From NCBI GenBank assembly GCA_010093605.1, contig MU004181.1, forward strand, positions 186,001 through 250,000: a DNA stretch of 64,000 nt, given 5' to 3'. Below, piece after piece: positions 3,001 to 60,790 of this stretch. The DNA comes from Lophium mytilinum (Eukaryota). Each line of letters opens with the position of its first letter. Positions within the stretch are counted from its first letter, which is position 1. The notes below the pieces were generated by a model. The model saw nothing but the letters and a program-made list of their open reading frames with translations. It was not told the origin of the DNA and did no database searches. The position numbers and the translations under genes are program-made.

Positions 3001-4159
3001 GGGGCGAAGGAGCCTAAAAGAGGATGTAGATATGAGCGTCACCGGGTGGGGCTGGTTCGGCAGTATGCCACTCGAAATGCATAGTTGTGTTCCGCTTCTT
3101 TGTCCATGTCAAAGACTCTGACAGGTAGTCCCACGAAACCGTCTGCTTCACCAAGCTCGCCCTTCGACTCGATCTCGGTTCCTGGTCGGATTGCTGGTCA
3201 CCCATGGCGCTGCCCGCGAACATTTCTCGTGCACAGAGGCTGTCTTCATTCTTCGAGGATTCCCCCTAGCTTTCCCGTCCGCCCTTGGTGTCTAACCCAT
3301 TCTCGCCACTGTGTTATCAAGCTGTTATGCTATTTTCGAGGATTGTCGGGCCTACTACGCGAGCTTGGAGATAAGAGGCCTGTAGCACACTGCGTTAGAT
3401 GATTAATGCCTGTCGCAGACCGAGTTCAACTTACCAATGCCTGATGCACCATTAGCCGTGAGACAATACTATCGTGGTGTGGAGTTTCTGGAGGGGTCCG
3501 CTCTCGTGCCGTCGTTGCGTCTCTGTCGCCTGTAAGAATGCCTTGGACTGTCTACGTGTAGCTGTGGGGGCTGATATAGAGACCGTCGGCTGCTCATCGA
3601 GGTTATGGAGTGAGATGGACTGCTGCGGGGAACAGAGGTGTCCAAGGCGGCTGCGGTTGACCATTGCAGACGGATGTTTTGGAGAACGGACCAGAGTTGG
3701 ATTAAACGAATTCAGCGGGTTGGCGATGCCGTCGTGGAGCTGTTGGTTTTGACGCGTGACGGACGCGTCTAGAGAGTCTATCATGGGATGTCAACATGCG
3801 GAGGAAGCACATGATGGCGTGGTGTTGCCTCGCGACATTGACAGTAGGAGAGTCAGCCTGGGAGCCTACCTCGAATCCGGCTTTGCTCCAAACATCATGA
3901 AGAACTGGACGTCAGGCGGTAAAGACCCGCAACTCCATCCTCTCAGGATCTTCAGGTCGCACAAAAACGCTCAATTTGTGGAAATCTCATCACAGCCCCA
4001 ACAACTTCAAGCAGCAAGAAGTCCAAGAACACAACAAACAGAGAACACCTGCCACTGTCTCACAGCAACACCTCCAAGCCCAGCTTCAGCTTCACAACAC
4101 CACCAATCCCTTCTTCAGCCTCCCGCACAAGGCGAGAAAACCAATGAAAAGAGTTTGTT

Positions 4160-4311
4160 GCCCAGAGGTTGAGCGGACCATCAAAAATTGTGCCGGTTAA
4201 CCCCCCCGAAGGGTGATTAATAGCAGTCCCCTGACGCGTTGTGCAATGCAGGAGGGGTCTGCCAGGTGGACCAGATTCATGAGCTTGGACACCCCAACGT
4301 GGTACCCGCAT
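4160..4311 (-). ncRNA. U1-like spliceosomal snRNA, variant 5' end
   Basis: Minus strand folds by hand into the U1 cloverleaf. Helix H is GUUGG/CCGGC; stem I is GGUG..CCA/UGG..CACC; stem II is GGCAG..CCCCU/AGGGG..CUGCU, with the 10-nt loop AUUGCACAAC (U1A site, 4238-4247); stem III is UUAAUC-ACCC-UUCG-GGGG-GGUUAA. The Sm site AAUUUUUG (4182-4189) is followed by 3' hairpin GCUCA/UGGGC. Length ~152 nt. The 5' arm reads AUGCGGGUACC instead of AUACUUACC. Confidence 0.8.
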
Positions 4312-4348
4312 AGGGTGAGGAGCAGGAAGGAGGCAGAGGGGAGGCAAG

Positions 4349-4356
4349 CTTATATA
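4349..4356 (-). promoter_or_regulatory. TATA box of the U1-like gene
   Basis: TATATAAG on the minus strand, followed by a CT-rich tract, about 45 nt upstream of the inferred 5' end of the U1-like RNA. Confidence 0.55.
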
Positions 4357-6249
4357 GCTGGAGGAGGGCGTCGCCAAGGCGGGTGACTAATCAACACTAG
4401 GCCTATTGCGGAGCTTCTAGAAACTGGCGGAAGGGAGGGCGTGGAAGGCTGGTAGCCGGGCAGTGGAGCGGCTGGTGCCTGTTGTCCTGCCGCAGGCGGC
4501 TGGGTCTGATTCGGCTCTGAGGGTCCCCGGCATAGGTGTGTGCCTCATATCTTAGGCTTCAGGAGACTGGTATGGTCCGCGGGTGGCGTGGGTGGTCAAG
4601 AGTGTCATTGGGCCCGACAGAGCATGATGTGATCTATGTGAGATGTGAAAATGAATTCATTTTGGAAGTATTCAGGTATTGTCTCCGCAACATTCAGATT
4701 TCAACTCTACACCCCGATCATTTGTCGAGTTGTAGTACACAACTGAGGTAGCTCGTCTCAAGTCATGGCCAGGTAGTGTATAGCGCCACTCAATCGTTGT
4801 TGTATCTTGAAAGCAGAAGGAGCTTATTTTCTGCAACCCCTTTCCTCGCCCACCTGATTTCTGCATTCACTTGCCTTGACCGAGCCAAAGATCTTTCGGA
4901 TCCTGCCTACTCCGCATCAGTACCATGAAGTCAGCTATGGTAAGCTCATCGAACTACGCTTGGATGGCGTCGAGCTCTCGATACACGACCTCCGTCTCAC
5001 TAGCTCTGATTAGTCTTGCGAAGTATTCTCTCATTTGCCGGTTGCAGCTACTTGACGTGTAAAAATAGCCGTGCGACCTCCTCCACAGCCCTTCGCCCAA
5101 TCCAGGCTGGAGTGAGACTTGATCAGGACTTTCCGGACCAGGATCTTTTTGTTAGATTGCCCTAGCAGCTACATCGTCCGAGAAGAAGCAACAGGCGTGG
5201 CTAGAAGACGAGGTGAGAGAGGTCGTAGGAGTAGCTGTTGCTGAGATTAGTCGCTCGGGAGATGCCGATTCCCTTATGGGCGAAGGAATGCTCCGTCGTG
5301 ATCACGATGGGCTGTCCGGTTGCTTAGCTGTCACGTGTCCATTATAGGATGCCTGCTGCGGCCAAGACGAGCGATAGAATTGGGGAAAGTGCAGTGGCAG
5401 TGCTGGGGCCTAGTTGAGTGGTGTTGGGAAGTGGATGCTCCCAGTTGTTAGACTCTGGGACGGGACAATGTTCCTACGTTGTGGAGAAGGCTCGCTTTTA
5501 GAGATCAGTGGATCGTCACTAGGCAGAAAAAATTGTGCTTGCTTGTCATGTCTTCCACGTCATGAGGTTACGCGCTGAGCAACTGTGTGAAGACTTGAAT
5601 AGAATTGTCTTCCCGCTAACCCTGTTTGCAATGGCATCTTCTAAACTTGCCCTCGGCAATTAACCGTGAACCCTTTCAACGCCATGCTAACCGGGGAATG
5701 TGTCGTTCCTGATCAATTAGTGTATAGAAACCCGTTTTTACCCCTTGTCCCATAGAGGATTCACAACTCCGTTCCGTCCATTGTCTCAAATGAGAGGCTA
5801 GAAATGAAAACGCTACGCAAGACCCTTCGATTAGGATCAGATCGAGCTGTCGTGCGGGAAACTAGATGATATTGACGTCGAGTATGTGAGATACGGGGTA
5901 TTAGGGAGTCGATAGGTCCAGTATCGGCGACGTAAACGTCGAAGGCGAAAGCGTACTGCGTAAGGCAAAACAGGCTTCGTCCATTCGGGCAGAGAGGGAG
6001 ATTAGGTCTTCTTTACGACGTCCTCTATTGATTGTTATTGATTCAATTCGCGGCTAGGCTTCATTCCAACCCGATTGAAACTCGCCTCTTGCAGTCTGCA
6101 TCACCTCATCCAATACCGAACTTCACCTGGGGCGCAATAATATAGTCCTAGACCGCGTCAGTGTCTATCCGAGTAGAAGATCGCTTGAAGTGTTGACTCA
6201 CTTCACGAAGGAATCCCCCAGTTTCGGCAATGTCCATGTCCATACCCTT

Positions 6250-6700
6250 CTCAAAGCTCGACTCTTCCAGTGACCGTGTCGCTAGCGCCATCGAAAACAT
6301 CATGCTCACCCTCCATGTCTAGTCGATTGATGGCGGTATTGGTGGAACCGACATGGTGCTTATCTATCAGGTCGCACTCGCTGTTCTTGTAGAATGTCGC
6401 ACATCCATCAGCCCACTTTGCTTCTTTTTCTGCCATCGTCCTCGCTCTCGACTTGGGCCAGAAAACTCCAATGTAGTCGGTATGCGCCAGTGAGGAGTAA
6501 AGACAGATGTCGTAAGATCCTAGGTCAAATTCCTGGAGACACACGATATCGGCATTCCGTTCTCGGAGTTCTGCTAGAGTGACTTCTTCCGGTGATCCGA
6601 GGATAGTGCGCGTGAAGGCGTGTACCTAGATTGGGCCTACGTAGCGTGCTTGTTACCGGGCGTATCGTTGCTTGTTACCGGGCGTATCGTAAGTTAGAGC
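6250..6700 (-). pseudogene. CCR4: CCR4 deadenylase (EEP domain) fragment 1
   Basis: Translates to YTPSRAL..CLQE..GVFWPKSRARTMAEKEAKWADGCATFYKNS..NTAINRLDMEGEHDVF, matching the fungal Ccr4 nuclease domain. Has frameshifts, stops and a 22-bp tandem duplication (6647-6690). Confidence 0.85.
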
Positions 6701-7469
6701 CGTGAACGTTTCTTGGCCAGCCCTTGGGCTTCCTTGTCCGAGTGAGAGCCGGTAGGTTCTGGGGCGGACAAGTTGCTCGGCCATGACATTGTCGTGACCG
6801 CTTGGCTTCATATCCCACTAGGTACGGCAGAAATTGCGTAAGGGGCGTTGGTGGCGTTGATGAAGTCTGCATTTCCGAGAGAGGCTCGAGGAAGCGAATG
6901 ATTCTCCAAAGGTCGTCGTGTCCCCTCGGTGAGGCGCAGTAGTATCCAGCAGTGAAGAGGGCCAGTGCCCAGAATGTGAAAAGCACGAGTGTCCGGCACG
7001 TGAGGAGAAAAGAGAGGCTGTCGTCCGTCTCGGTCGCGTGCATATACGGCACTGGCTTAGAGGCATCTAAGAACCTCAGCAGATTAGAACGTGCCGTGGA
7101 AGAGCGGAGTGGGTGACTTGCCGTACGCGGTTCATGTTGACCTCTGCTTCTCGCCGAAGTTTTCCTCGTCTTCGCCGGTAGTGTTTTCGCGACGTTCTTG
7201 TTGCGACCGTAGAATCTGACCACATTTCTGCCGCGGAAGAAGGGCTTGAGGTAATTAGCAGCACTTCGACGTGAAGTAGACGTTGTAGATAGGTTGGAGG
7301 GCGGATGATGTTTCGGGTCGGTCGGCGGCACAACGGGGTTGACACTTGTTCTCACCCAGGTTTGTATCACGAGACCTCACTGAGCGGAACGCTATCTTCT
7401 CTGACATTTGCTATCTACTTCAGATCGATAACCCCTCAAACTCCTCCTTGATTGCTTTGATGCGAGTCC

Positions 7470-8090
7470 ACTTCTCCATGATAGGGTAGACTGGACAGTA
7501 CTTGGAGACTAGACGGATGGTGTTCTCGCTAATAAAAGTTAGCTCTGGATGCTGTGACATGTCACTCTATTAGAACGTGACTTACCTAGTGGTCAGGACT
7601 AAGATGGCACCAGCATTCTGCTCCAGGCTGGCACTGACAGCAGCCATAGCGCAGGTCTCGGTAGTAGGAGCAGGCACAGGGACGACCTCCTCAGCTCAGG
7701 AAAGGGAGATATCCACTTCGGCGGGCAAACAGGTCTTGTGCACCATGGTGACATCCTCGGCCCGCGAACCAACTGTGTATTCCCACCACACGTTTGAGAT
7801 TCCATCAATCCCACCCCAGATAAACTCCACAATCATCCCAGGTAATTGCCCTTGGTGGCCTCGCCTGACAGTATAGCGCAGTCGGTCTGCACCGTTCAAC
7901 ATGACGATTCCTGCCTCGCTCTCTTCAGCACGGGTGGGGCGGGGCTTGTAAGTTATACTCTTCAGGATCTCAGTGGCGCAGATAGCGGGCTTGCCGGCGA
8001 TGTTGCACTTAGTAATCATCCTCTTCTGTGCGATTAAGATCTGGCTTGGAGGAATGTCGATACCGAGATCACCACAGGCGATCATGACGC
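7470..8090 (-). pseudogene. PYK1: Pyruvate kinase fragment (C-terminal half) with retained intron 7529-7585
   Basis: [36 protein letters not shown]; then TETCAMAAVSASLEQNAGAILVLTT | GTAAGT..GCTAAC..TAG | ENTIRLVSKYCPV. Interrupted by stops and unrelated sequence. Confidence 0.9.
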
Positions 8091-8629
8091 CAAACGAAAC
8101 CAGAGTGTCCGCAGTGTCGTTTGCCTTCGTCCTCAACACGTCGGGCTACTTATCGTTGAGGTACCACAGGCCGATGAAACTGTTCACACTGACGTGAGTC
8201 AAGTTGAACGGAGGTGCATCCGGGTGAGTCTCGAAGTCCTTCACATGTTCGTGGACGGCCCTCACTACATGTCAGCAGTAGTACCTAGATCCGGTTTCTA
8301 TCGCCTCACTTTTGATTCTCGAAGTCGCACTGGCACTTGGGTAGGTGGAAAAGAGTTTCGGTGGCTTCGAGCGACTCTTTGACCTTCGCCTTGTCTGGCA
8401 CGTTGACATCGAGGGAGAAGAAGTCAAGGAAACGGACCACAAGCGCTGGCTTCCTGGGAATGTTGGGTTGGGACATGTCGTTAGGCTTCTGTTTGGATAA
8501 ACGATGATAGTAGGATGTGCGCATGCAAAAACGGCAGCTTGGGCGGAGCCTTGGCAGTGTTGAGACGGCCAGCGAAGAGATCGTCTTGCAAAGCATCGGC
8601 AGTAAGATAAGCGTTCGCAAAGCCAGCAG

Positions 8630-8740
8630 CAAGGTTCTCGTCGAAGTTGTTGACTCACTCCCTGCTGGCTCTTGATCTTGGCAATGATCTGGATGTCCTT
8701 GCCCTCTTCGCCCAGGACCTCGACGATGTTGAACAAGATT
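8630..8740 (-). pseudogene. PYK1: Pyruvate kinase fragment (upstream piece)
   Basis: IVEVLGEEGKDIQIIAKIKSQQGV resembles the PK IREVLGEEGKxIQIIAKIENQQGV motif. It is separated from the main PK piece by about 500 bp of unrelated sequence. Confidence 0.8.
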
Positions 8741-9275
8741 TACTCCGGTACGGCTCTCAACGCAAGATGCACGGTAAGTGTCGCGGTCGTCACGGTCGCG
8801 GGGACCATCTCGGTTGCGGCCGCGGCGCACGCCATGGGGCTTGCATAGGTGCTTGTGCTCGAGGCAGGTAGCAAGTTGCTGGACGAAGACCGTCTGTCTG
8901 TCACGCTCGTCCACGGTCGGCATTGGCTCCGGGGTCTTCGTGCAGCGCTTAGGGCTCTCGTCGCAGGATCCACATCGTCCGTATTTGCCTCCACGGTAGG
9001 AGTTGCGGAAACCATCTTTATCTCGGCCGCGGCGCATACCACGGGGCTGATAATGGCGATCTGGGATCTTGAGCGGGTTCGGCGATGTCCACCTCGACAC
9101 TAGTCACCGCGTCTGTCGTCAGGGCGACAAGGGAACCTAGATCTGTGTCTGTGGTGCTGTAAGTCCCTACTCCTGTCACTGTCCGGGGCGTCCATTATCT
9201 CGACGTCGTCATCTTCCTTCTGGATTCTCGTGCGGCTACGATTGCGACGATGGTCTCGATCGCGGTCGTGGGCAC
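8740..9275 (-). pseudogene. RBM39/Rsd1-like splicing factor N-terminal fragment (RS/RD region and start of RRM1)
   Basis: RDRDHRRNRSRTRIQKEDDDVEIMDAPD.. and KTPEPMPTVDERDRQTVFVQQLA (RBM39 family: DERDRRTVFVQQLAAR). The RG-RRGR-RDG segment is internally duplicated (about 8780-8840 vs 9000-9045). Confidence 0.75.
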
Positions 9276-11272: not shown

Positions 11273-12610
11273 CTACGCCACGTTGAGGCGACTTTCCGCT
11301 TCCTCGACCAGCTTGTTGATCTGCGCATTGACCACTGCGTTGATCTCCTTGGCCGTAGCAGCAATGTCATCAAGCGAAAGTGGGATGGCGTCGCCCGCCT
11401 TGCCGCAGACTTGAGCCCGTCGAATTAACTCATGAAATCTCCTATAGCAACCGTTGGACTCAGCATCAAATATAAACGTGATGTTGCCTCTACGTTCCGC
11501 CCGGAGCGGCAGTAAGAGGTCTCTCTTGCACTTATAGAGAATCCAGCTAAAGATCTCAAGACACTTGTGGTTAAACAGATCTTGGCGATCGCCTGCTTGG
11601 TAGACGTAGCAAGAGCCATGGAACGTCGACCGACGCAGGCTGGATAAGCCCTTGAGGCTTATCATCATATTTTCCACGTCACCTCTGACCTCGGTGAGAG
11701 TGACAGAACGTATTTGGTCTAGGAACATCGACTCGGTCCGCAGCAAGGTGTCGATGAGGACGTCGCAGCTATCGAACTCGAACGTATTGTGGCGCCAGAA
11801 GTTCTTGTCGGCCATGTTGCGAAGCTTCTTGTTCACCAATCGAAGACACATGTAAGTTGTTATGCACTCCGAGTCAATCGAGTGATTTGCAATGACGAAG
11901 CGGGCGGGGTGGTTGCTGCGAGTTCCGGTGGAGCTATACATAATCACGTCTCCACCTCCTCCGACGGATATATAGATGACTTCATGCAGGAGCTCGTTGG
12001 GTAGAGTTAGTAAAAGACATGGCTCCTTGTTGTCCTTACTGGCGTCCGAATTGTCATACTTATTATCGACCTTGTCCTCTTTTCCGGTGTTGCGTCCGTC
12101 CTCGTGTAGAGTGATCGTCTCTGCATCTGACGTTTTGTCGCCAACTGTTTTGTTGCCTACATTATCTGCAATCTCTCTATAATCTGCAGTCTCTATATTA
12201 TCTGCATCCTGTGCATTATCTGCGCCGAGTCCGGAGCTAAATGCATCTTTCCGAAGGGAGGTGACAGCGTGAGCTGACCCCGTCGCATCCTTCAACTCTA
12301 GACCATTGAAAATGGCGTTTACATTTCCATCTGGCACGTCTTTCCTATTGTCGCTAGGGATCGTACCTAAATCTTGGATGTTTTCCTTGCCAATGGCCGA
12401 CACCTCCTCGTAAGCTCCCTTCGAAAGTCCCCCATTCTTCGGCAACTCTTTGACTAAATGCTGAATGTTCTTGACGGGAGGCAAAAGAGAGAATCCAACA
12501 TCTCCATGCTGCACGGTCTGCTGGTGTCCATCATCCTGAACGTGCCGCTTTATAGCCGAGTCCTAAGTCATATTCTACTTCCCCAAGGGCGGGGTGGGGT
12601 TGCTAACCAT
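11273..12610 (-). pseudogene. F-box-like family member A; probable true start ATG at 12610 is followed by two in-frame TAG stops
   Basis: ORF 11273-12514 (GTG start) has an acidic N-terminus, LLLTLPNELLHEVI and the family C-terminal domain. The in-frame ATG at 12608-12610 is followed by TAG at 12575-12577 and 12563-12565. Confidence 0.7.
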
Positions 12611-14469
12611 ATCGAGGTAGATTGGTGAGTGTAGTGTAGAGTTACTAGCTGTGTGTTAAGAGATGCCCTAAAGTGGGTTGTGGTGGATAGTTCAGGGCTA
12701 TGCGAAGGAGGATTAGGGCTACCGTTCGATCGACCAGTTGACCGGTTGATCGAGTTAATTGACAGTTTTGTTAATCAATTCAATCAACCGGCCATCTAAA
12801 AAAGGTTCAATCGATTAATTTAAAGAGGCGCACTTAATTAAATTAATTAATTAATTAATATATAAGTTTATATAAGTTTAGTATTATAGTTTAGTATTAT
12901 TAGAGGCCTAGAGGTCTATAATTCTTAGCCTTTTATTAGTCTACCTATATAAGCTAATAAACTCTATATACTTACTATACTTATACTTACTATACTCTAT
13001 ATACTTACTATAATCTATATACTTACTATAATCTATATACTTTCTATTTTATATAGCCTTAATTTATTACTAAAATATAGAGTTTTTATAATAGCTTCTA
13101 TATAATAGTACTACTATTCTTATTACTATCGCCCCTATACTTATTGCTACTATTCTTATTACCGCTATGCCTTCTACTGCACGCGGCCGCTATACTTAAC
13201 GCCCTTAGTACTATAATGCACGCTATACTAACTCTTCTATTACTACTACTACTACTACTATAAATAAATATAATATTTCTCTATATTTTACCCGCCCTTC
13301 TATAGAGGTATCTATATATTATAATATTACTCTTTAAGAATCTAATAGTAATAATAGTAATATATTTAATACTATTACTAATACCACTACTATAGAGAAC
13401 GCCTACTAGTAATAGTAATAGAAAGCGGCTATATAGCTAGAATACGCTATAATATATAATAGAATTAATTAAACTCGCCTTTCTAGATATTATTAGCCTA
13501 TACTAAGTACTTTTATATAATCTAGTAATTTCTAGTTCTATAGCTATAATATCTATAGAGAAGTAGATAGTAAGCGCTTCTAGTACTATAAAATCTACTA
13601 TCTATAAAAGGCCTATAGCTACTATATCTATAATAGTAAAGGTACTAGAAATTATATAAAATACCTAGCTAAATAATATAGAATATTTCTTAGCTAGTAA
13701 TAAGAATATTTTAAGAAGCTTTTTATTATTAAATAGCTAGCTCTAAGTATAGTAAATCTAGCTAGCTAAAGAATAATTAATACTATTATCTATAGTTTTT
13801 AACCTATCTACTTCTTCTAGCTTCTTATCTAATAGCTAGTATATATAAAGATGCCCTTTCTAGCTATTAAGAATCTATACTTCTATACTCTTTTTATCTA
13901 CCTTAATAATGCTATAGATATAGGCAACTATCTACTTAGTTAAATAGCTACTTATATAATAGTAATACTAGAATATAATTACTACTAAGGTATAATTAAG
14001 AGCCTACTTACTACTATACCTAGAAAGCTATACTTCTCTATAGATATCTAGATATTATATAACTAGAAGATATTACTTAGAATTAATATCTACTTTATAG
14101 ACGCTATAAATATATACTAATTAATAGTTCTAGCGTTACCTAAGCTACTTACTAAGTATAGAGGTATTAATATTAAGAATATAGTATTATAAATATTCTA
14201 AGTATATACTTACTATTATTATATAGCCTTCTATATACTTACTATTATTTTATAGCCTTCTATATACTTACTATTATTATATAGCCTTCTATATACTTTC
14301 TAGATAGTTTAGTAGCTAATATATATCTTAGCTCTTTAAAATTTACTTTAATTAAGTTGGCTATATTATTACTAATAACGCGTTAAATCTTAATATATTT
14401 ATACGCGATATAGTGTTCTTTAGTATTAATAAACTTAAATAATAGCTGCGCTACCTTAGCTATATTATT

Positions 14470-14679
14470 TATAGGGGGCTAATATAATATAAATAATAAG
14501 GTATATTAACTATTATAAAAATCTAAGCTAAGAAAAAGAGAGAGAGCTAGAAGCTCTTAAGAGGTTATAGTTTAAGGCCGGCGTACGGGCTATAGCCTAG
14601 CGCGCCTCGCTTAGGTTACGTAAGGGCAGCACGTAACCTAAGTATATAATTATTAGAATTCTAGGTTTATACTATAATA
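14470..14679 (-). repeat. 3' LTR of the Gypsy element
   Basis: Direct repeat of 21965-22174. I count 17 differences, all C/T or G/A transitions. Confidence 0.92.
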
Positions 14680-17600
14680 CTACCCCCTTCTTTATAAGCT
14701 AAAGTTCTATAAGGCTTATAATATATTATAGCTCCTTTATCTATTCTATTCTATCTATATTAAGCCGCTTATGCAGCCCTTCTATTATTATACTTACTAT
14801 TATCTATAGCTGCTTATATAGCCTTACTATATCTATTATTTCTATACTTATATTTATTCTTATATTTATTCTTATATTTATTTTTAAGCGCTGCAAGCGG
14901 ACTATATAAATTAACCTAAAGCCTATTATTAGCTTCTACCTATTAGAGTTTTACTTTAGGTTACCTATATAGAATAGCCTTCTTATAAGATAACTTAGCT
15001 ACCTAATAAGGTTACTATTTATACTTACTTAGGCTAGTACTAAGAATATTCTATAGGCCTACTATTGCTATAGTAGCACTTATACTTTTATCTATTATTT
15101 TTGTAACCTTCTACTTAGACATGCTAAATATTAAATAAGGTTCTAGTTTAAGGCTATATTTTGCGTAGTATTCTATAAGGAGTTTATTATAACTATTAGT
15201 ATTCTAATAGGGTTTCTATTTAGGCTATATATTATTATATCTAGTCTAGGCTATTCTATAGACTAAGTAAGGCTTCTTACCTATATAGAAATTAAGGCGT
15301 TAGCTATTAAAGTAGAAGTCTAATATCTTATTAATATAGTATTCCCCTATAAAGCTATCTTCTTCTATCTTAAGCATAGGTAGGGGTTCTAGATATTATC
15401 CTAGAAGGGGAGGATTTTTATTAATTTAATAGAGTAACTATAGATAGAATACTAGAAAGATTCCCTTTATAGAGTTAGAAAGTTCTAACTTATAGGCTAT
15501 ATTATTAATAACCCGTGTTATATAAAAGGGACTAAGATTCTTATAGTTAAGTAACTTACTTAGCTGCGTAGTATAAATATTCTTAGTATTAAGTATAACT
15601 ATATTATTAACCTTAAACTTAGGGGCTAGTAGGCAGTTTTAGTTAGCTAATTTCTTTATTTTAGATTAATTCTAGTATAGTTCGCCTTTAAGAAACTTGC
15701 GTAAATTATAGATCTATATAATAAGCTTTTTAGCAGCGTCTACGCCTTATTTCTCCGGGCCTAGCATAATAATTCTATAGAAGAAAGATTTAAGACTACT
15801 TCTAGGCATATATTCTTTAGTAGCTTTAAATAGTAATATACTAGTAGACTAATTAATATTAGCATTAGCCTTAAATTTAGTAAAGGTAATAAGGTTTATC
15901 TAGTTATCTTATAGGTAATAAATATACGCGCGCAGGTACTACTTTAGGCCTGTATTAATAATTTTAGTTTATCTATTAGTTTCTAGATAGGCTATAGTAG
16001 ATAGCTTTAAATATATTTCTATACGCTTATATAGGTACTTCTAAAAGAAAAATATAAACTACGCGCTATAGTTAGATATAATATAGTCTAGATAGCTTTC
16101 CTTACGCTAGATTTAGTTAATAAAGGCCTATATAATATCCTCTAGCTCTATAGAGTTTAGCGGAATAAACTTATACTTTTTAGAAAGTTAATTAATAACT
16201 ACTATAATGTGTTAGTATATATAGCCCTTAATAGTATAAGAAGGCAGCTTAGTAATAAAGTTAATAGAGATATCTATCTAGTATTAATTTAGAATAGGTA
16301 ATAGCTTAAGTAAGCTATATTTACTATCTTTATAGACCTTAGTATATCTATATATTTAATAGGCGTTAATATATATAGTAATAGAGTTTATAATACTAGG
16401 CTAGTAGTACTAGAAGAAGAGGTAATAATAGAGGGAGTTTCTTCTAGTATAGCCTCTAGAAAGAGAGTTATAGGCTTTCTTAATTAACTATATATAGAGC
16501 TTTGCGTTATATAAAATATATAGGCGGCCGTTAATAAATAGCCTATTTTTATAGATCTTGCAGTTACTAAGCTTAATTTTAATTTCTTATTTCTAAATAA
16601 GTTTAAGAGGAATTTATTATTTACCTATCTCTTTAGTATATATAATACGCTAGAGGATATTATTCTCTATATATATATAATTAATCTACTAAATAGTAGT
16701 ATTATTAGTATAGTCTTCTAGTAAGTCCTTATTTAACTTATTACTAGGCTTAGATACCTTTAGTACTTCTTCTTTAGTAGGGTCTATAGGTTTAGGGGCA
16801 ATTAGCGCGGTAATATTAGAGGTAGTATTCTATAGATCTTTATCTAACTTACTATATTTAGCTACAGCCTTAGCTAAGCGCTTCTTTTCTCTAGTTTTAT
16901 TAGCGGCTAGAATAATATATAGAATATTAGTTAGATACTATTTAGCTATTTTATATATAAGCTAGGCTATTTAAATAATAGAAACTTTCTATTTATTTAG
17001 AAGTATACTAGCGAGCTAGAGAGCTTAGTATATACTATCTAGTAGATTTCTCTTCTTTAAAATTATTTACGTTTAATATATAGTTCTAGAATTATTTAAA
17101 TTATTTAGAATATTACTAGGCCTATAAGTAAGGCTATTAGACTTAGTTAACTACTTACCTAGTCGCTAGTTTAGGATAAAGTTAAATTAAGAAAGGTACT
17201 TAGCCTAATAGGCTTATTAGCGGTTTAATTATTTAGAAAATATAAAGTATTCTAGGTTCTTATAATCTATTTATATAAGCGTAGGGTTAATTATACTAGT
17301 AAGCTTAGGGCGCTATTCTTTAAAGGTATAGATAATAGTAAGTAACTTCTTATTATATATCTTATAGTTGCACTTAGCTAGAGTTATTTTCTTAGAAAGA
17401 AAGGCGACGGGGCGGAGGATTCTATCTAGGCCTTATTAAGAGAGGATAGCGGTAATAATATAGTTAGATGCGTCTATTTCTAATATATAGTCTAGGTCTA
17501 GATTAAAATAGGCTAAGACTAGTACTAAGAGAAAAAAGGCTTTAAGCTTCTTAAAGGCTTACACTACTAGACTATTAGTAAGTAAGAGAAAATTACCTTA

Positions 17601-20600
17601 TTCTATAGTTTTCTTAGTAAGCTTAGTTAATAGAGTAGTAATTTATAAGTATCCTGTAATAAATTATTAATAGAAGTTATAGAAACTAAGAAATAATTAT
17701 ATATTCTTAATATTACGCGGTAGCTTCTAGTTCTAGATAGCGCTAACTTTATTTAGGTCTATTTCTATACTATTAGGCGTAATAATAAGTCTAAGATACT
17801 TAACGCGTTTAACTAAAAAGTAGTATTTATTAATATTAAGAAAGAGTCCTATATTATATAGGGCTATAAGAATATTTATATAGTCTCTTTTATAGTCCTC
17901 TTTATTATTACTATAGATAAGAATATTATCTATATAGGCTATATAGTAGACGTCTAGATATAGATAAAGTATAGAATTAATAAAGAATTAGAATATTCTA
18001 GAAGTATTATATAAGCTAAAAGGTATAATATTAAATTTAAAGATACTATATTAGGTATAGAATACTATCTTAGGTTAATTACTATTTTTAATATAGATAT
18101 TATTAAAGGCTGTAATAATATTAAAGATAGAGTATATCTTAGCTTTATAAAGCTATATAATTATATTATATAAAAGAGAAGAAGTATTTCTATTCTTAAC
18201 TATAATTTTATTTAGTAAGCGGTAATTAATATAGATATAGAGTCCTCCGCCTAGTTTATAGATAATAATAACCGGCGCTATAAAGAGTAAGGTACTAGAA
18301 TAGATAAAGCTTTTACTAAGTATTTTATTAATATAGGCTTTAACGGCCTATAATTTATTATAGAAAAGGCTATACTAATATAGAACTAGTAGTTTTGCAT
18401 TAGAGTCTTTAAAATTAATAGCGTAATTAATACTAGGCCTATATAGAGGCAGCTTATTAGCTACTTATAGATTAAATATATTTAAAATCTAGTAAAAGAA
18501 GGGAGAAACCTTCTATTATAGCTAGTCCTTAGTATATAGTAATTTAGTTATTTTCTCTTTAAACCGGCGGTAGTCTTTAGTAGTAATATCTACTAGGTTT
18601 ACTATCTATTATCTATATATGTATTACTTATCTATATTCTATAGTTAATCTAGTTGCTTAAAATCTTATAAACTAATAGTTATTACTATATCTTTATTAT
18701 ATTTTACTATAATAGAATAGGTATATATAGAAATAAATTAAATATTATATACTAGCGGCTTATCTAGTAGAACTAGTTTAGGCAGGAAAGGCTTACTATT
18801 ATAATTAAGCTAAGGGGAGTCTTCCGCGTTATTAGGGCCTTTAATAGTTAGGGTAAGGTTAAAGTTAAAGTTAGGGTTAGAATTAGAGTTAGAGTTAGAG
18901 TTAGGGTTAGAGTTAGAGTTAGGGTTAGAGTTAGAGTTATATTAAGAGCTATAGAAGTCGCCTAGATTCTAGTATAGTTTAATTTTAATATATTTTAAAT
19001 AGATAAGGCTTTTTATAATAACTAGCCTGCTATAATAGAGGTAGTTAGATATATAATAGTTAGATTAGAAGATAAGTTGCGTCTTTCTAAAGCTAATAGT
19101 AGGGTTATAAAGTTAAAGCTAGAGTATACCTAGAATTATATTATATTAGCTAGTATTAGTAATATAGTAAATAATAGTATTATAGTAGTTACCTATATAG
19201 AAGGTAATATCTACTATATAGTCTAATATAATAAAGGGTTTACTATTAGTAAGCTTAAGAATAATAGGTTATAAAAGGGGTTAGGTAGGTATCTTATAAA
19301 GGCGCGCGGTCTTTAAATAAAGAAACTAAGAGCCTAATTCTATATTAGAAAGAATTTTAGTAGTAAATAAATTAGAATTAGATTAGAGAATACTACCTAA
19401 GAAGCTAAACTATTTACTATTAACTAGTTAAGGCGTAAGTATAGATATACGCATAATAACTAGCTTAATTTCTTATTCTAAAATAGTAATTCTATCTATA
19501 ACTACTCTTAATTTTCTATTATTAAAGGCTATTAAAGGTTCTTAGTAGCAACTATTACTAAAAACTAAGTATTTTCTATTATCTTATTATAGGTAGAGCT
19601 AGTATTTATAGCGCTAATATTAACGCCGGTAAGGTTAATCTTATCTATAAGGCCGCTAACTTTATAGATTAGAACTAGCTATTAGCTAATATATAGTATA
19701 TTACTATTAGCTATATATCCGCGCTTAAGGTAGTTCTAGTAGCGGCCTAGCTACTTAAGGCGCGTAATAGTACGGTAATTATAGCTAAAGGGGCCTAGAG
19801 AGTTATTTATAATAGTAGTATTACTTAAGGTAGTATTACTAGTATTATTCTTAGATATATACTTAGCGTTAGTAAGTAGCGGGTAGTAAGGCGTAGTAGA
19901 GCTAGCGCTAGTAGCTTTATAAGTATTACGCGTAGACTTAGAGCTATTCTTCTCTTTATAGGTATTCTTATTTAGCTTAATAATATTAAGCTATAACTCT
20001 AGAGTCTATAGAAAAGTAATAAAAGTTATTATATTAGTATTCTATCTATTAGTAGCCTTATACTTAAGGCTATTAGTAAGATTATATTATATATAGTAGA
20101 TCTTCTTAGAGTCTTTAAGATAGAGGGAGGCTATACTAGTATTAAAATATTCTACCTAGGTTATAACGCGCTTATCTTTCTCTTATATAAACTTACTATT
20201 ATATAAATTAGTGCATATATTAGCTACTTTATTAAAAGGTCTATAGATCTTATTAAGGTTATTAATTAGTTTCTCTATAGAGAGGTATAGCTTATTACTA
20301 TTAGGTTTAGCGCGGTAGAAGATTATATTAAATACTTTACTCTTAAGCCTATTACAGACGTATACTATATAATAATTAGTAGTAGCGTATAGTAGTGTAT
20401 AGATATCTAGCTTACTAAGTACCTATATACGCTACTACTAGTAGAATAGCTTATTTTTATTACTACTACTAAACTTATCTAGGTTAGAATAATAAGATAT
20501 TACTATATATATGTCTAGATTCTAAATAGATATAAATAGAGTAGTAGACTTACTCTTAATAGAATTAAACTATAGAGGTTAGCTAATAGAATAACAGTAA

Positions 20601-21964
20601 ACTAGTACTGCGGGCGTAGAAGAGCGGGTGCTATTATTATTATTATTATCTAAATTATAGTTAGGGTTTAAGGGCTATAGGTAAGCCTATTAATAAAGCT
20701 ACTATTTAAGCTTCTTAATATAAGTAGTAAGCTTCTTATATATCTCTTTAAGAGTCTAGTACTTACTATACTAGTAATTATAGCGTAGGCGCATCTAGTT
20801 AAGCTTAAGGTTAGCTTAATAACTACTTATAACTTACTATAGCTACTTAGTATAATAGGCCTCTAGTTCTTATTCTACTATAGTAGTATTATTAGTAGTA
20901 TTCTATTTATACTTTTAGTATTTATTCTAGAGTTTATTATAGAGCTTATCTTTATTATTAGCTTTTTTAAAGTCTACTTTATACTCTATATAGAGCTTCT
21001 AGAAGGATTTCTACTATACTAGGTTATCTTTATTTACTATAGTAGTAAATTTAATCTTATTAGTAACTATAGTATTAATAGTAGTTATACTATTACTATA
21101 ATAGTTAAGAAGCTAGACTAGTAGCTATATATAGCGCTATAGGTTAGTTTCTTATAGTTTCTCTAGAATATCTATATACTTAGGTTTAGTATTTAGAACC
21201 TATTTAGTCTTATAATATATAACTAAAATAGAGGCTTATTAGTCTACTATAGATACGCAGTAATAAGTAGAATATAGCTTACTACCTCTAGCTTATATTT
21301 TATTTATATTATCCTTAGTAATAAACTATATAGCGCGCTTACTAAGAATATTTACGCTAGGTATAATAAAGCCTTCTTTATTATTAGAGTTATAGTCTAG
21401 GTTAAGTTTATTAGTAATAGTCTAGGTCTAGTTCTAGTTAGAGAATCTAGTAGTATTAACTTATTTATCCGCTAGGCGTTTAAGGCGCTAAGTATTAGCG
21501 CGCTAGGTATTATTTATTATCTATAAGGTAGCTAGAAGAGTTATAGAGTCTTAGGTCTATTCTTAGGTATTTAAAATTAGTTCTCTAGTTCTATAGTAGA
21601 AGCTAGAAATAATAACTAGAGTAGAAGAGCTTTTAGCTACACTATAGAAATATATAAGGCGCGTAGTATAGCAGGCTTTCTTATTACTAGTAGTTAATAG
21701 AGTTATAGAAGTATTTAGGTTAGCGCTACTTATAGTACCTAGAGTCTTTAGGTTATTTTAAAGCTTAGCTATAGTAACTAGCTTATTTAAAGGAGGTAGT
21801 ACTAGATTATAGTTTACTAGGTTAGATTTAGGTACCGCGTGTAGCTATATAGCTAGGCTAGCAGAAGGGTATTTAATTAGTTTTAGTAAAAACGCCTAGA
21901 TCTTATAATAGAGTTCTAGAAAAAATTAATAAGATTCTAAGTATAGAAGAGTAAGCTTAGATTA

Positions 21965-22174
21965 TATAGGGGGCTAATATAATATAAGTAATAAGGTATA
22001 TTAACTATTATAAAAATCTAAGCTAAGAAGAAGAGAGAGAGCTAGAAGCTCTTAAGAGGTTATAGTTTAAGGCCGGCGTATAGGCTACGGCCTAGCGCGC
22101 CTTACTTAGATTATATAAGGGTAGTATATAATCTAAGTATATAATTATTAGAATTCTAGGTTTATACTGTAATA
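21965..22174 (-). repeat. 5' LTR of the Gypsy element
   Basis: Direct repeat of 14470-14679; termini TAT..ATA are consistent with RIP-mutated TGT..ACA. Confidence 0.92.
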
Positions 22175-25100
22175 TTATTAACCTTATAGTCGCCGCGCTA
22201 TTTACTAGTAAGTAGAAGAGTAACTTTACTACTTATTATAAGTATAATATTTTTAATAAATATATAGTAACTAAGCTATAAGTCTAGTAGTAGCTTAGTC
22301 TAATTATAAAGCTTTACTATATTATAATATAGCTATTTAATAGTAAGTAGCGCATATAACGCCTTATTACGCACTAGATAGATACTAGTAAGAAGAATAG
22401 CCTTCTTTCTATTAAGCCTATTACTACTAGGTAGAATATACTTAAAGCTATAATAGAGCGTAGCATTTAAATATAGGCATCTCTAGATACTATAGTTATA
22501 GAGAAGGTTATTAGTATATTATATCTATTCTATATATACTATAGCTTATTATATTCTTTCTATTTTATTCTTTCTATTTTATTCTTTCTATTTTATACTT
22601 CTTTTTTTATACTTTCTATTTTATACTTTCTATTTTCTATATACTTACTATATATACTTACTATACTCTATAGCCTATTATATAATACCTACTAATATAT
22701 ATATAGAGTAGAATACCTATTAGACTACTATTATCTAAAATAGTATATAACTACTACCTATAAAATAGCGCTTATAGCTAAAGATTATTAATAACTACCT
22801 CTTAGATAATAACTAGATTATAATTATATAGTATCTATAGCTTTTAAAGCTATTTAAAATCGCTATAAAGCGCCTTAAGAGTTATATTTATAAAGAAAGA
22901 GAGGGATCTCTATAGAAGATTCTACCTATATTTAAACTTCTACTAGCTTATCTTAAAAAAAGTAAGATTTAGTATACCTTATACCTAGAAGCGCACTTTA
23001 AAAATAGTATTAATCTAGGTATATATTAGACGCTATATAAAATAGAAAGTATAAATAGAAAGTATTTAGATAAATAGAAAGAATAATCTATATACTTTCT
23101 ATTTATCTATATACTTATAGTTTCTTATATACTTTCTATTTCTTATATACTTACTATTTTCTATATACTTTCTATTTTATATAGTCTATCTATATCTAAC
23201 CTTATATTAGCTAATCTTTAATAGCTTAAATAAAGCTTAAGAAATACTACTATTTTTCTAACTACTCCCCTATATATATTACTGCTATTATTCTTTATTC
23301 TATGCATAAATAGATATAGATAGAGAAGAGGTAGCTAATAAACTAGATTAGATCTACCTAAGAGAAGGTGCTATAGCTATAGAACTTAAAGTATAAAAAC
23401 CTAGTAATTATTTAGCCTACGCCTATTTAATAAGAGGCTTTAGCTTATAATAATAATAAATAGTTTAGTACTAGCTTTATAAGTAGCTTTTTAAACTTAA
23501 TACTAGAAATACTAAGCTTAGGTATAGGCTGTAATAATAAGTATATAAGGTAGCTTACCTAGAGTAGTTATTATAATAATATCTAGGTAACTAATCTAGT
23601 ATAGTATTAGGTTATAGAGCTTAAACGCTTTAAGTTTCCCTAGCTAGTATAGATAGCTCTTAATTATATATTAGTTTCTACTATAAGTATATCTAATAAA
23701 TAAGACTTTAACTAAACTAGCCTACTCTAAAACCTAAGAAGATTCGCCCTATATACTAATATTATTAGCGCCTATATATTACTATCTTTATAGAATAAAG
23801 AGGGGGTAATTAATCTACTAGATAGTTAACTTATATAAGAAAATTAACTAAAGTAATATTAAGCTAATATAATTAAGGCATCTATTAAGGATATTAATAT
23901 TAATATTAATATTAACGTTAACGTTAACGTTAATATTAATAAGAACGGTAATACTAAGAAGGATAGTACGGATAAAGATAATAATTAATTATAACTTAAT
24001 ACTATATATATAAATCTATAAAGAATCTTTACTATTATTTTATTAATTAATTAATTACTTTAATTTTATATTAATTAATTTAATTAATTATAAATACTAC
24101 TAACTAAGGCTTTAATTTATTTAATTGTAACGTGTCTAGTTAATTAATTAAATAGACGGTAGCCCTAAGGAGGATAGTAAGAAACGAGGCTTCTTAGAGA
24201 AGAGTAATTATAGACAAGATCCGCAAAAGAGAACTATAAATGCGAGCTATCGTAAGGAATTGGAGTGTGTTGGATAGGTTAATGATTGACAAAGCTTGAA
24301 TAGATTTTGTTGGACTGTAATTGTTGAGGGTCTGTTCCAGCAAACCGCCCATTAATCCAATTGTGGATTGGACGGTCTACTGACCACGCTGCTTCCAAGC
24401 AAACTCGCTAAAACATAGCATACCCCTCCATTGAACGTATTGAACGGATTTTCTGTGACCCGGTAGACAATCTCATTAATCCATAGACCTTTGAAGCGCT
24501 AAGCTCAAACCTCTCGCATTCACAGTACCTGTATGTGGGCTCGGGGTGGTCAAGGTATCGCAGCAAAACTTGACCTTCAGCAACCATTAGTTCGGCAGCT
24601 TCCCTCCGCTCGTTCTCCCAACAAGAAAAGTCTCTTGAAACGCTTATCCAAATGCTTAGATGTTCGCTCGATCCCGTCTGCCGCCAGCGGAACCACGCCA
24701 CGCAGAGAAACCTAGACGGCCACATAAATCGTCTCTCGATTGCGTTGTCCGGGGAGGTCGGTCGTGGAGTGTTTTCGGCATCGGTAGCTTCATCGTTATC
24801 ATCGCGTTCCAGGTCAGAGGCTTTATTTTATCACTGCGGCCGTTCGCGATCGGTGCTTCTTCTCCTTGCTTCTTGATTGATCTGGAAGGCCAGGCAGACT
24901 TGCTCACGCGCTGGCTGCTGTTCAGGCCTGCAGCGCATTGTCAGAAGCGCCACTTGCAGATGCTAAACCAAAGGGCTTACCATATCCCAGCGTCTCCGTT
25001 CTGTTTGGAGTACCCCTACGCCTCCTCTCGCGCGACAACTCCAGTCGCTGTTCAAGCCATTTCCGGCGTAGCCGACGGACAGTTTCTCGTTTTACGCGGA

Positions 25101-25565: not shown

Positions 25566-26927
25566 CTACTCTTCAGCCGCTCCCTCTGCCTCGCTCGCCG
25601 CCTCGATGTTCGCGATCATGTTATTGCACCGCCGATTGATGGCAGCCGCTCGATCCTCTATCTGCTTCAACGAGAGCGGGACTTGGCCGGCCGCCTTTCC
25701 ACACAGCTGTGCTCGCCTCATCAGGTCGTGAAACCGGACGTTCCGGCCTTTGCACAATGCGTCGAAGACGATCTCGAAACGATTCTGCCCGTACGCTTCG
25801 CGAAGAGGCGTGAACAGCTTCTCCGTTCGGCCTTGCACCAAGTCTTCGAATAAGGATTGGCACTGCGCCTCGAACTGGTCCTGTGAATCTCCTGCTTCGT
25901 ACACGTATGAGCAGCCGGTAATCGTGAGCCGGCGCAGGCTGGAAAGTAACAGTAGGTAGTGGAGTAGGAACTCTGACGAGCCATCCACGACGTTTATGGT
26001 TACGCGCCGGATCTCGTGAACGAACTTAGGCTCCGTCCGGTCCAAGAAGTCGCACATCACGTAGCCAGTCCCGAATTGGAAGCCGTTAAGTCTCCAGAAG
26101 GATTCATCCACGATGTCTCTGATCTTCTTATTCGTGCATCGGAGTGTCATATATGAGGTGACGTACTCTCCACCAAAACTATGATCAGCGATAGCGAATC
26201 GGTTAGGCACGTTCACCTCATCGCCTTCGGTCGTTTCGATGATGACATCGCCTCCTACGCCGACTGCTTTGCTGAAGATGTCGATCAGAATCTCGGTCGG
26301 GAGATCGAGTAGGAGAAGGGGTTTCTTGTTCTCTTTATCTGCATCGGGGTCTTCTTTCCTGTCAACTTCCATTACAACCTCGTCCTCGTCGTCCAAGAAA
26401 ATGATGGTGCTGGCTTCCGATACATCGTCCCGGAGATCGTCGTTGACAGAAGACGTAGTGATGGTGGCAATGGCAGCTCTTGCGCAGACGTTCGTGTTGA
26501 CAATCAAATCCCCTTCGGATCGACTACCCGTACCGTCATCTTTAATCGAGCTAAGAGGTTCAAGCTGCATCGTACTCCTGAGGCTGATGGCACTGGCATC
26601 CACCAGATCTTCGACCTGTTCTCCAGCATCGACTTCCATATCCTCGTCTGACGAAATGGTGGAGTCCTCATTCTGGAAAGAGCCTGCAGCCAAGAGGTCA
26701 TCCGTGCCAGTATGTAGACCCAAGGTACCAACTTCCTTCGGAACCTTGGCCCTTTTCGATCGCATGACCAGGTGTTGGTTCACCGACCCCTGGGCAAGAC
26801 CGAAAGCTCGATTGGCTTTAAGCTCTAGCCTCTGTTGCTGTCGGGCTCGGTGAGCTTGCCGCTTCAAGCTTGACTTCTGGGCACCAGTCTTTCGCGAACG
26901 GGACGACCAAGGGTACGTGACAGCCAT
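25566..26927 (-). CDS. F-box-like family member B (453 aa)
   Basis: Intact ORF with a basic N-terminus, acidic linker, LLLLDLPTEILIDIF F-box-like motif, then AVGxGGD / ADHS / YMTLRCTNK / LSSLRRLT / FDA / RRA family motifs. By eye it is closest to member A. Confidence 0.88.
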   Translation of the reverse strand: MAVTYPWSSRSRKTGAQKSSLKRQAHRARQQQRLELKANRAFGLAQGSVNQHLVMRSKRAKVPKEVGTLGLHTGTDDLLAAGSFQNEDSTISSDEDMEVDAGEQVEDLVDASAISLRSTMQLEPLSSIKDDGTGSRSEGDLIVNTNVCARAAIATITTSSVNDDLRDDVSEASTIIFLDDEDEVVMEVDRKEDPDADKENKKPLLLLDLPTEILIDIFSKAVGVGGDVIIETTEGDEVNVPNRFAIADHSFGGEYVTSYMTLRCTNKKIRDIVDESFWRLNGFQFGTGYVMCDFLDRTEPKFVHEIRRVTINVVDGSSEFLLHYLLLLSSLRRLTITGCSYVYEAGDSQDQFEAQCQSLFEDLVQGRTEKLFTPLREAYGQNRFEIVFDALCKGRNVRFHDLMRRAQLCGKAAGQVPLSLKQIEDRAAAINRRCNNMIANIEAASEAEGAAEE

Positions 26928-27346
26928 TCTCTTGAATTGGACTGTCGAGATTTGTAGTTGATAAAGAAAGTGTTGAGTGGGCGAAGAAGGTGTGTGGTGG
27001 TGTCTCGTGGATATTTTGGAGGGAGGTTGTGGCAGGAACGATCTATCAGAGTCTTATATGGGTAAGGTATTAGGGAAGAAACGGCCAAGCTTTCGCCAAA
27101 AGAGAGAACCGAAGCCTCCTAGCATTCACGTTGTAGTCGCGCTGTGGCTCCATAGCCGGCGACAACTCCGTGAAACCTGACATTCACGTTCAGCTGGAAA
27201 ACCTCCCGAACATATAAGGTTGCTCGTTCACATTCTTTTCTTCCTCTTCAACCACCCCACCGCAACCAGAATCTGCTCTACTCCCCCATTGTATCACCAC
27301 CTCTTCACCAATTTCATCCACCTCCTCACAACCGAACTGTTCAACC

Positions 27347-29957: not shown

Positions 29958-30569
29958 GATGATGTTTTTTGGAGGAATGGTGGAGAGGCTGGAGAGGTTT
30001 GTGATGGTTGAGAGGTTGGAAGTTTGCTGTGATGATGTTGAGGATTCGGAGGCTGGAGAGGTAAGAGAGTAGATATCATAGTTTAGATAGAATGCTATGG
30101 AAATGGACGCAGAGTGAAGGTGGCTAACAATAGGATCTTCTTATTGATGAAGGATGAGTATTGTCGAGGCCGGGCTGGATAGAAAGGTGAAGTGGAAGAA
30201 TCTCAGAGCTGGGAGTGCAGGGAAAGGCGGTGAATGTCATGAATATGGGGCCTTGCAGGCGACATAAGACTGTGGATCCGTGAATTCTTGCAGTTCGAGA
30301 TATCTTCCTGGCTCAGGAGTCACTGTTCTCTTGGACACCCTCTGCGCATTAAAGCCCTGCGTCGAGAGCTCTTCTGCCTTCGTTCTCGGCTTCCAACAAC
30401 ACCACCCACCCTCCAAACTCAACACAACCAGCACCACCAAAGTTACCTGTTGCCTTGCCCTAACAACAACCATCAATCCGCAAAATAGCATCTGGTTGCC
30501 ACAGCGTGACTGGCAGACTCGATCCTCGCAAGTACAATCTTTTCCATTCCATCAGACCGTCTAAAAAGG

Positions 30570-54347: not shown

Positions 54348-54449
54348 AAAAATTTGGAAGCTACTCTTTGGTAATGCGTGTCATCCTTAGTGCAGGGGCC
54401 AATGCTAACCTTCTCTGTATCGTTTCCAATTGACCAAATGCCCGAAGGC
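54348..54449 (-). ncRNA. U6: U6 spliceosomal snRNA (slightly variant)
   Basis: GCCUUCGGGC hairpin, then ..GAUACAGAGAAGGUUAGCAUUGGCCCCUGCACUAAGGAUGACACGC.. and a T-run terminator. TATA (TATATATT) at 54472-54479; B-box-like AGTTCGAGCC downstream at 54310-54319. Confidence 0.93.
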
Positions 54450-60400: not shown

Positions 60401-60790
60401 CAAGCTGAGCAGTTCAATGAAAAAAAAGGTTGAAGAGATATCTCATTCGAGTTTGGGTTCCAAAAATTCCCTGCCGATCCGAAGACCAGCAGGAGCAGGT
60501 CGATTGTAGTTTTCAATCAGCATTACACGGGCTCGGATGACTCCTCACTGCCACGCGTCTAGCCCTGAGAAGATGTTAGTGATGAGGAACTGTGGAAAGG
60601 ATGGGGAGGAGAGGACTTACCTTGCACTAGGATGAAGAACGGAAGGAGGAGCAGTGGCTGTCGAGAATATATGGAAAACTGCTGGGGCCCGTGCTCGGCA
60701 TTACTCATCAACGCTACGCAGTTTAACAGCAGGCAGTCTAGTTGGGGCTTCTTCTTCCGGTTAGCGTGTGGAAAGTAGGCCGGCAGGCGG

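Follow-up and report, generated by a model that had tools for sequence, protein, structure and literature searches.

A U1-like small nuclear RNA gene with a non-canonical 5' arm and snRNA-type flanking signals in an ascomycete genome

Introduction

Few RNA sequences in eukaryotes are as conserved as the 5' arm of U1 small nuclear RNA (snRNA). What, then, is a gene that has the body of a U1 snRNA and an arm that no longer spells the complement of the standard donor site? We examined this question for a locus at positions 4161-4311 (minus strand) of a 64,000-nucleotide stretch of Lophium mytilinum DNA (contig MU004181.1, positions 186,001 to 250,000), referred to here as the window. We interpret the locus as a diverged, single-copy, promoter-bearing U1 paralogue of an ascomycete that is probably transcribed and whose particle would be unable to read standard donors. 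We give this reading a probability of about one half, and we regard the simple decay of a duplicated gene as its serious rival.

Whether more than one donor-site code can operate in a cell is a question for which natural U1 copies with altered arms offer the only natural test. In humans, where such variants are studied, the gene families are very large and difficult to take apart. A fungal variant that is single-copy, with a clean promoter, would allow deletion or an exchange of arms in a haploid, tractable organism, and the question could then be tested directly. Should the copy be dead, it still shows that the Rfam U1 threshold misses diverged fungal copies, and a fungal snRNA 3' box and introns inside snRNA guide regions remain as the yield of the work.

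Results and discussion

A U1 homologue with a rewritten 5' arm

A scan of the window with Rfam models at their gathering thresholds returned two matches, U4 (60447-60574, minus strand) and U6 (54349-54449, minus strand), and left out the U1-like locus. Aligned to the Rfam U1 model (RF00003), the locus matched end to end (model positions 1-166) at 33.3 bits, with an E-value of 1.2e-6 for a search of 701 bases and 1.1e-4 for the whole window. Because the Rfam U1 model is dominated by non-fungal U1, we built a fungal covariance model, R1, trained on 44 distinct canonical fungal-type U1 genes. R1 scored the locus at 72.2 bits (E-value 2.5e-14) and found no second match in the 64 kb. Three members of the training set (L099, L013, and L001) scored 128-133 bits, against 72 for the window gene, and four loci from outside the training set (L087, L088, L092, and L082) scored 76-98 bits. 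The R1 consensus fold shows changes on both sides in 34 of its 36 pairs across the 44 fungal genes. We consider it certain that the window gene is a U1 homologue with the U1 fold and a non-canonical arm. It is filed here as a U1-like paralogue rather than as a canonical U1 because the defining ACUUACC arm is absent. A sequence-only reading of this DNA had placed a U1-like gene at 4160-4356, and the full-length matches to both models agree with that placement. The parts of the RNA are as follows:

4299-4311, minus strand: non-canonical 5' arm, AUGCGGGUACCAC; the arm of canonical fungal U1 is AUACUUACCUU
4294-4298, minus strand: 5' strand of helix H, GUUGG, paired with CCGGC at 4192-4196 in the model alignment; the same letters occur in canonical loci, for example L099
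4265-4293, minus strand: stem-loop I, with the U1-70K loop GCUCAUGAAU at 4284-4275 and two non-standard pairs in the upper stem
4221-4264, minus strand: stem-loop II, with a 10-nucleotide U1A-type loop, AUUGCACAAC, at 4247-4238, from the model alignment and the fold
4197-4220, minus strand: stem-loop III, with a UUCG tetraloop; CCUUCGGGG is nearly invariant in the fungal alignment
4192-4196, minus strand: 3' strand of helix H, CCGGC, from the model alignment
4181-4189, minus strand: Sm site, AAUUUUUGA, from the model alignment
4160-4174, minus strand: short 3' hairpin of 5 bp, GCUCA-ACCUC-UGGGC, from the minimum-free-energy fold

The window gene has the four-way junction of U1, made of helix H and stem-loops I-III and followed by the Sm site and the 3' hairpin, and 32 of the 36 R1 pairs are standard. 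Loop II contains AUUGCAC and is closed by UGC/GCG; the two stem pairs that come next are broken. The Sm site lies between helix H and the 3' hairpin and is of the AAUUU(U/G)UGG-like type. Loop I was earlier thought to be altered, a claim that did not hold up. It is of the type that binds U1-70K (AUCACGAAG-like), its ten letters recur without change in 2 of 52 fungal loci with a canonical arm, and a GCUCA.GAA. form is found in 26 of the 52, among the matches listed from the metagenome survey described below. Judged by these sequences, loop I of the window gene is normal for its fungal group.

The rewritten arm, in contrast, was borne out. The only letters that it shares with canonical U1, which has ATACTTACC in 52 fungal-type loci, are UACC. 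Upstream of UACC the window arm has GGG-C-G, compared with U-C-A in canonical U1; it is 2 nucleotides longer, and the two T's that follow CC are replaced by AC. Canonical fungal arms take the form ATACTTACCTTG(T/A)T.GG after a CTTCTTC-type run, where the window has ATGCGGGTACCACGTTGGGG. The RNA would start at A4311 or, by alignment with the U4 promoter, at A4316, and neither start gives ACUUACC, the complement of GGUAAGU donors. UACC would pair with G|GUA, and pairing with GUAAGU should be impossible beyond position +3. By base-pairing alone, the arm is expected to accept G|GUA, a pyrimidine at +4 to +6, G at +7, and a pyrimidine at +8, i.e., to prefer G|GUAYYYG donors. The nearest canonical locus and best body match among the matches listed is L001, with 75% identity over 124 nt; compared with it, 9 of 13 arm columns (gaps counted) and 48 of 125 body columns differ, which gives p = 0.033, a weak result since L001 is distant. 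A search of the window for GGTACCCGCAT targets with up to two mismatches gave no signal (9 matches, with 11.3 expected). A true retargeting to GUACCC-type donors, as the sequence-only reading had proposed, seems to us improbable from these sequences.

Flanking signals shared with U4

The U4 gene of the window provides the comparison for the flanks of the U1-like gene. The following elements were identified:

4384-4395, minus strand: upstream promoter element, GTTGATTAGTCA, 39-40 nt before the TATA box and of the same 12-mer class as in U4
60701-60712, minus strand: upstream 12-mer of U4, GTTGATGAGTAA, 39-40 nt before a TATA-like box
4350-4356, minus strand: TATA box, TATATAA, 39-45 nt upstream of the proposed start
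4312-4349, minus strand: pyrimidine-rich start region containing CTCCTTCC, which aligns with CTCCTTCC..TTCTTC upstream of U4
4110-4150, minus strand: three-part 3' box, consisting of TTTTCATTG (4150-4142), the hairpin CTCGC-CTTGT-GCGGG (4136-4122), and GAAGAAG (4116-4110), with the same layout after U4

The upstream TATA box of the earlier reading is present, and a TATA box lies 43-44 nt upstream of ATACTT in the fungal U1 loci L057 and L101. Canonical fungal U1 loci begin after a CTTCTTC-type run. The upstream 12-mer motif was derived from the U1-like and U4 genes themselves and is a feature that they share, not an independent match. When the two 130-nt upstream regions were aligned globally, 24 of 1000 shuffles attained their score, as did 24 of 1000 stretches taken from elsewhere in the window.

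Downstream, the U1-like gene (4150-4110) and U4 (60423-60383) have a 41-nt unit in common, composed of TTTTCATTG, 25 nt, and GAAGAAG. The hairpin within it has 5 bp and a CUUGU loop, and the two stems differ in a compensatory way on both sides, with CUCGC/GCGGG in the U1-like gene and CUCAG/CUGGG in U4. Among the matches listed, 49 fungal canonical loci have enough flanking sequence, and in 44 of them a TTTTCATTG-like box follows the Sm site at a distance of 3-36 nt; none of 36 loci of non-fungal type has one. The hairpin and GAAGAAG are also seen in many fungal U1 loci. This three-part element after the snRNA genes of this fungal group is probably a 3'-end formation signal. Because the signals are common to U4, a clearly working gene, the U1-like locus carries what look like the snRNA expression signals of its host. 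It has, by sequence alone, the snRNA-type promoter and 3'-end box of its own that a variant U1 gene should have.

These features suggest how the gene would work. RNA polymerase II would transcribe it, starting near 4311 (or 4316) and ending near 4160, and the product would be processed like other Sm-class snRNAs; transcription is most likely because a U4-type upstream element, a TATA box, a pyrimidine-rich start, and the three-part 3' box are all in place. The RNA would then assemble a U1-like particle, as may be expected because helix H, the protein-binding loops I and II, and the Sm site are kept. Such a variant particle would be of low abundance, and it would either recognise a few non-consensus donors or have little function.

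U1-type paralogues in the same organism

We compared positions 4100-4420 with the contigs of two DNA sequencing runs that are possibly the source of the window DNA, at a likeness of at least 80%. The U1-like locus was single-copy, with one spanning contig at a base depth of ~154, and it did not belong to a repeated element. Six or more other contigs matched the 3' box (4110-4152) with 2-7 differences (83-95% identity), one single-copy contig matched 4237-4301 with 6 differences, and three contigs with a summed depth of ~967, or about six genome equivalents, matched ~4235-4270 with a 1-nt deletion. None of the paralogue contigs matched the RNA body at 4155-4231 at this likeness. U1-like sequence continues into their loose ends, where 3' strands of stem-loop II, a stem-loop III of the UUCG type, and an Sm site with a 3' stem behind it can be read. 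By this count the same genome holds about eight U1-type genes, the window gene being one diverged member, and the locus is an arm-changed paralogue beside other U1 genes. The 3' box is better conserved than the 3' half of the RNA, which is expected of old paralogues that are each kept expressed and not of a drifting copy. The sequence-only reading had also considered a captured, drifted copy; this is unlikely, as the organism's own contigs contain the flanks in a single copy and the promoter and 3' box are complete. Run X3 covers the 3' box and the loop II region alone, by way of other U1-type copies, with no cover on 4155-4231 or 4276-4420, and it is silent on the expression or absence of the gene.

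In the closest paralogue the likeness stops exactly at 4301, and its reverse-complemented loose end reads CTAAC and, seven letters later, CAG. This paralogue probably has an intron at the arm, with a 3' end much like that of the intron in the window U4 gene. The U4 intron is of the messenger RNA (mRNA) type and follows nucleotide 13: exon 1 is at 60633-60621, and the intron occupies 56 nt at 60620-60565 with GTAAGT, CACTAAC, and CAG. The Rfam alignment took the last letters of this intron as the 5' end of U4. The spliced 5' end pairs with the window U6 at -26.8 kcal/mol, compared with -14.7 kcal/mol for the unspliced read.

Introns and altered arms in fungal U1 genes of metagenomes

At least 121 metagenome loci were recovered by searching with a pattern that combined loop I, loop II, and the Sm site. 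Of those listed, 52 are of the fungal type and have the canonical ATACTTACC, and another 37 are canonical but belong to other types; contig ends cut off 4, and in the remaining 28 no canonical arm lies directly upstream. Introns of the mRNA type, ~55-75 nt long, occur in these metagenome contigs inside the donor-recognising arm, after ATACTT or ATACTTAC. They follow position 6 of the arm in L004 and L021 and position 8 in L003/L057, L101, and L091. The intron of L057 has a GC donor (GCAAGT), and the first exon of L091 is ATACCTAC.

Five loci combine an altered arm with a fungal promoter context and a U1 body:

L082: arm ATAGGTATTCCTG, 76 bits with R1
L087: arm TGAGTCACCATG, 97.5 bits with R1
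L088: arm ATACCGTACTTCC, 97 bits with R1
L092: arm ATATCGTACTTCA, 77.5 bits with R1
L119: altered arm, 48 bits with R1

Compared with its near-identical canonical sibling L013, L087 differs at 5 of 11 arm positions and at 14 of 123 body positions (one-sided Fisher p = 0.009), and its helix H has changes on both strands with pairing kept. L088 and L092, from related organisms, differ at 1 of 12 arm positions and at 19 of 126 body positions, and their far upstream and downstream flanks cannot be aligned. This pair is the sole direct evidence here that a non-canonical fungal U1 arm can be selectively held. It does not show that the window arm is held, and it could be the main U1 of that lineage that differs instead.

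Reprogrammed U1 snRNAs may form a class that recurs in filamentous fungi and is under selection, an idea that we consider doubtful but worth stating. Its members would be extra U1 genes with an snRNA promoter and with the full body needed to build a small nuclear ribonucleoprotein (snRNP); they would keep the arm letters that pair with GU, have the readers of +3 to +8 rewritten, and often have 1-2 extra nucleotides. Candidates would be the window gene (GGGUACC), L088 and L092 (CGUACUUC), L087 (AGUCACC), L082, and L119. If such a class exists, each reprogrammed U1 would license private non-consensus donors, e.g., of the GUAC type, as a natural analogue of engineered suppressor U1s.

Non-canonical arms on fungal-type U1 bodies were also observed at L084, L055/L069, and L096. 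A ATACTTACCTG stretch 250 nt upstream of L087 was tried as a U1 exon and rejected, being most simply the reverse of the consensus donor of a neighbouring gene. L049, on the same contig as L048, is a U1 of non-fungal type (21.9 bits with R1) in which the first ~25 nt are an A-rich run; it adjoins an intact canonical copy and looks like a truncated pseudogene.

Variant gene or decaying duplicate

The locus could also be a U1 pseudogene, a decaying duplicate whose short promoter- and terminator-like flanks have not yet eroded and whose arm changes are a loss of function, and we hold this to be a distinct possibility, if not our favoured one. Several observations weigh against a working variant, and some of them fit such decay. 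The Rfam comparison that was to settle the U1 identity gave a full-length match with a score about half of the gathering score (33.3 vs 69.5 bits). The body, earlier described as intact with pairing stems, is so in having helix H, three stem-loops, the AUUGCAC loop, the Sm site, and the 3' hairpin, and falls short in its details: 4 of 36 R1 pairs are non-standard, while the canonical 44 average ~1.9 broken or gapped pairs, and two of the four are stem-loop II pairs that are C-G in 43 of the 44 canonical genes. The window gene also deviates at 5 of 21 highly conserved columns (those at least 90% conserved among the 44 canonical genes, leaving out columns forced by the search pattern), where 30 of the 44 canonical genes deviate at none and the maximum is 4. 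Of the five columns, two belong to the linker that follows the arm and two are G's in the 3' strand of stem-loop II; the fifth is the base before the Sm site, which is G in at least 90% of canonical genes and A in the window gene. Folded as a single sequence, the RNA is no better than its shuffles (z = 0.71). Likeness to the U4 promoter is only modestly significant (~0.024), suggestive rather than strong, and its motifs were defined from these two genes. We found no close relative or orthologue of the window gene among the metagenome matches listed. A canonical arm in the other U1 copies of the genome is something that we infer and do not see, because the arm is universally conserved and the U4 intron has a GUAAGU donor; with about six copies of another U1 type by depth, other genes could do the work. 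Finally, gene fragments lie 2-4 kb from the locus on the same strand, which suggests a region that collects broken genes. One is part of a pyruvate kinase barrel domain (7696-8145, E-value 1.6e-25, 73 residues, profile positions 239-311 of 328) and the other is of the Exo_endo_phos type (6251-6625, E-value 1.1e-4, under the Pfam cut-off); no complete gene was found around either. Against decay stands the 3' box, with 2-7 differences in 42-43 nt from the paralogues while the 3' half of the RNA has diverged by more than 20%. The upstream element, TATA box, and start region match the U4 layout, and helix H, loop I, loop II, the UUCG loop, and the Sm core are intact. The arm has also kept its four letters for pairing with G|GUA, and altered arms on constrained bodies recur in other fungi, in one case conserved between two contigs.

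An ordinary U1 gene could hide its canonical arm in an upstream exon, so that the apparent arm is intron or leader. The introns of the window U4, of the metagenome loci L003/L057, L004, L021, L091, and L101 (after arm position 6 or 8), and apparently of the same-organism paralogue, with its branch-site-like CTAAC and then CAG just upstream of the equivalent of 4301, lend this idea some substance. The DNA ahead of the window gene leaves little room for it: there is no 3' splice site ahead of the body because no AG occurs between 4348 and 4285 on the RNA strand, ATACTT is absent from the 330 nt upstream, the minus strand at 4312-8772 contains no ATACTTACC even when one mismatch is allowed, and the TATA box lies 39-45 nt before the proposed start, as in intron-less genes. 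A ATACACTACCTGG-like stretch ~470 nt upstream was rejected as exon 1 since no donor site follows it. We therefore judge a hidden exon to be very unlikely. The least credible of the alternatives, in our view, is the one in which the RNA serves as a U11-like reader of U12-type donors or as an Sm-class guide RNA outside splicing. By base-pairing, the arm would accept GUAUCC through +6 with a G-U wobble, and U1 and U11 belong to one Rfam clan (CL00005). The best match within that clan is U1, not U11, and the gene has the U1-type AUUGCAC loop and a U1-70K-type loop I. A U11 would be marked by a 5' end complementary to AUAUCCUU or GUAUCCUU donors together with U12, U4atac, and U6atac, and the 64-kb window gave no such combination and no match to U12, U4atac, or U6atac. 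The window proteins are of the Ascomycota type, and minor-spliceosome RNAs in fungi are reported only for Zygomycota and Chytridiomycota in the part of PMC2396436 drawn on here, which makes the U12-type function once suggested for this gene unlikely.

Relation to described U1 genes

We return to the variant U1 that we favour. Among described genes, those nearest in kind are the human variant U1 (vU1) genes, which are likewise U1 paralogues with their own snRNA-type promoters and 3' boxes, an altered arm, and a U1-like body. A 2006 paper reportedly described human U1-like snRNAs that lack complementarity to canonical 5' splice sites. The window gene differs from the human vU1 genes in being fungal and single-copy and in having an arm that is 2 nt longer with five positions replaced. 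Transcription, a trimethylguanosine (TMG) cap, and snRNP assembly have been reported for human vU1 genes in the abstracts of PMC3561869 and PMC10870369. Our literature search for a fungal variant U1, which covered articles without their supplementary files, found no case. For A. fumigatus, two U1 isoforms that differ by 1 nt are described in an excerpt of PMC2377427.

The window gene belongs to the length class of canonical fungal U1, its stretch between loop I and the Sm site being 100 nt where the canonical loci have 97-101 nt. The two also have in common the GUUGG/CCGGC of helix H, the variants of loop I, CCUGCAUUGCACA, a stem-loop III capped by UUCG, AAUUUUUG, a pyrimidine-rich start, and a 3' box of the TTTTCATTG type. 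It departs from canonical fungal U1 in having AUGCGGGUACCAC instead of AUACUUACCUU as its arm and in the two broken, otherwise nearly invariant pairs of stem-loop II. An intron-bearing U1 was reported for Rhodotorula hasegawae (Takahashi et al., 1996, as it appears in the reference list of PMC2396436). The U1 paralogue in the same genome that seems to have an arm intron, and the mRNA-type intron of the window U4, are similar to that case, whereas the window U1-like gene itself has no intron signals. In Entamoeba, according to the abstract-level account in 10.1101/2022.06.08.495308, the U1 arm is no longer ACUUAC and is proposed to match donor sites that have changed as well. There the main U1 has changed together with the introns; here one extra copy has changed, and the sole intron seen in the window, that of U4, has a standard GUAAGU donor.

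Genomic context of the window

The window has three spliceosomal RNA genes, U1-like, U6, and U4, on one strand. U6 (54349-54449) and U4 (60447-60633) are 6 kb apart, both on the minus strand, and UGCACUAAGG in U6 and CCUAGUGCA in U4 are stem II partners with matching changes relative to the Rfam consensus.

Five paralogous open frames are located at 25566-27053, 27218-28582, 30510-31832, 32724-33878, and 34978-36693 and have the core ...LDLP.E(L/I)...I.E.AVGAGG... One of the five was searched, and its nearest Atlas clusters are DUF7730 or F-box-like and mostly from Ascomycota. On the evidence of these protein clusters, the window is from an ascomycete.

An AT-rich block at 12000-24000 has a GC content of 0.24-0.34 in a window of 0.47-0.56. 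Many spaced copies of ATACTTACT are found on its plus strand, for example at 12968-13027 and 14206-14272, and the block looks like a region mutated by repeat-directed processes of the RIP type.

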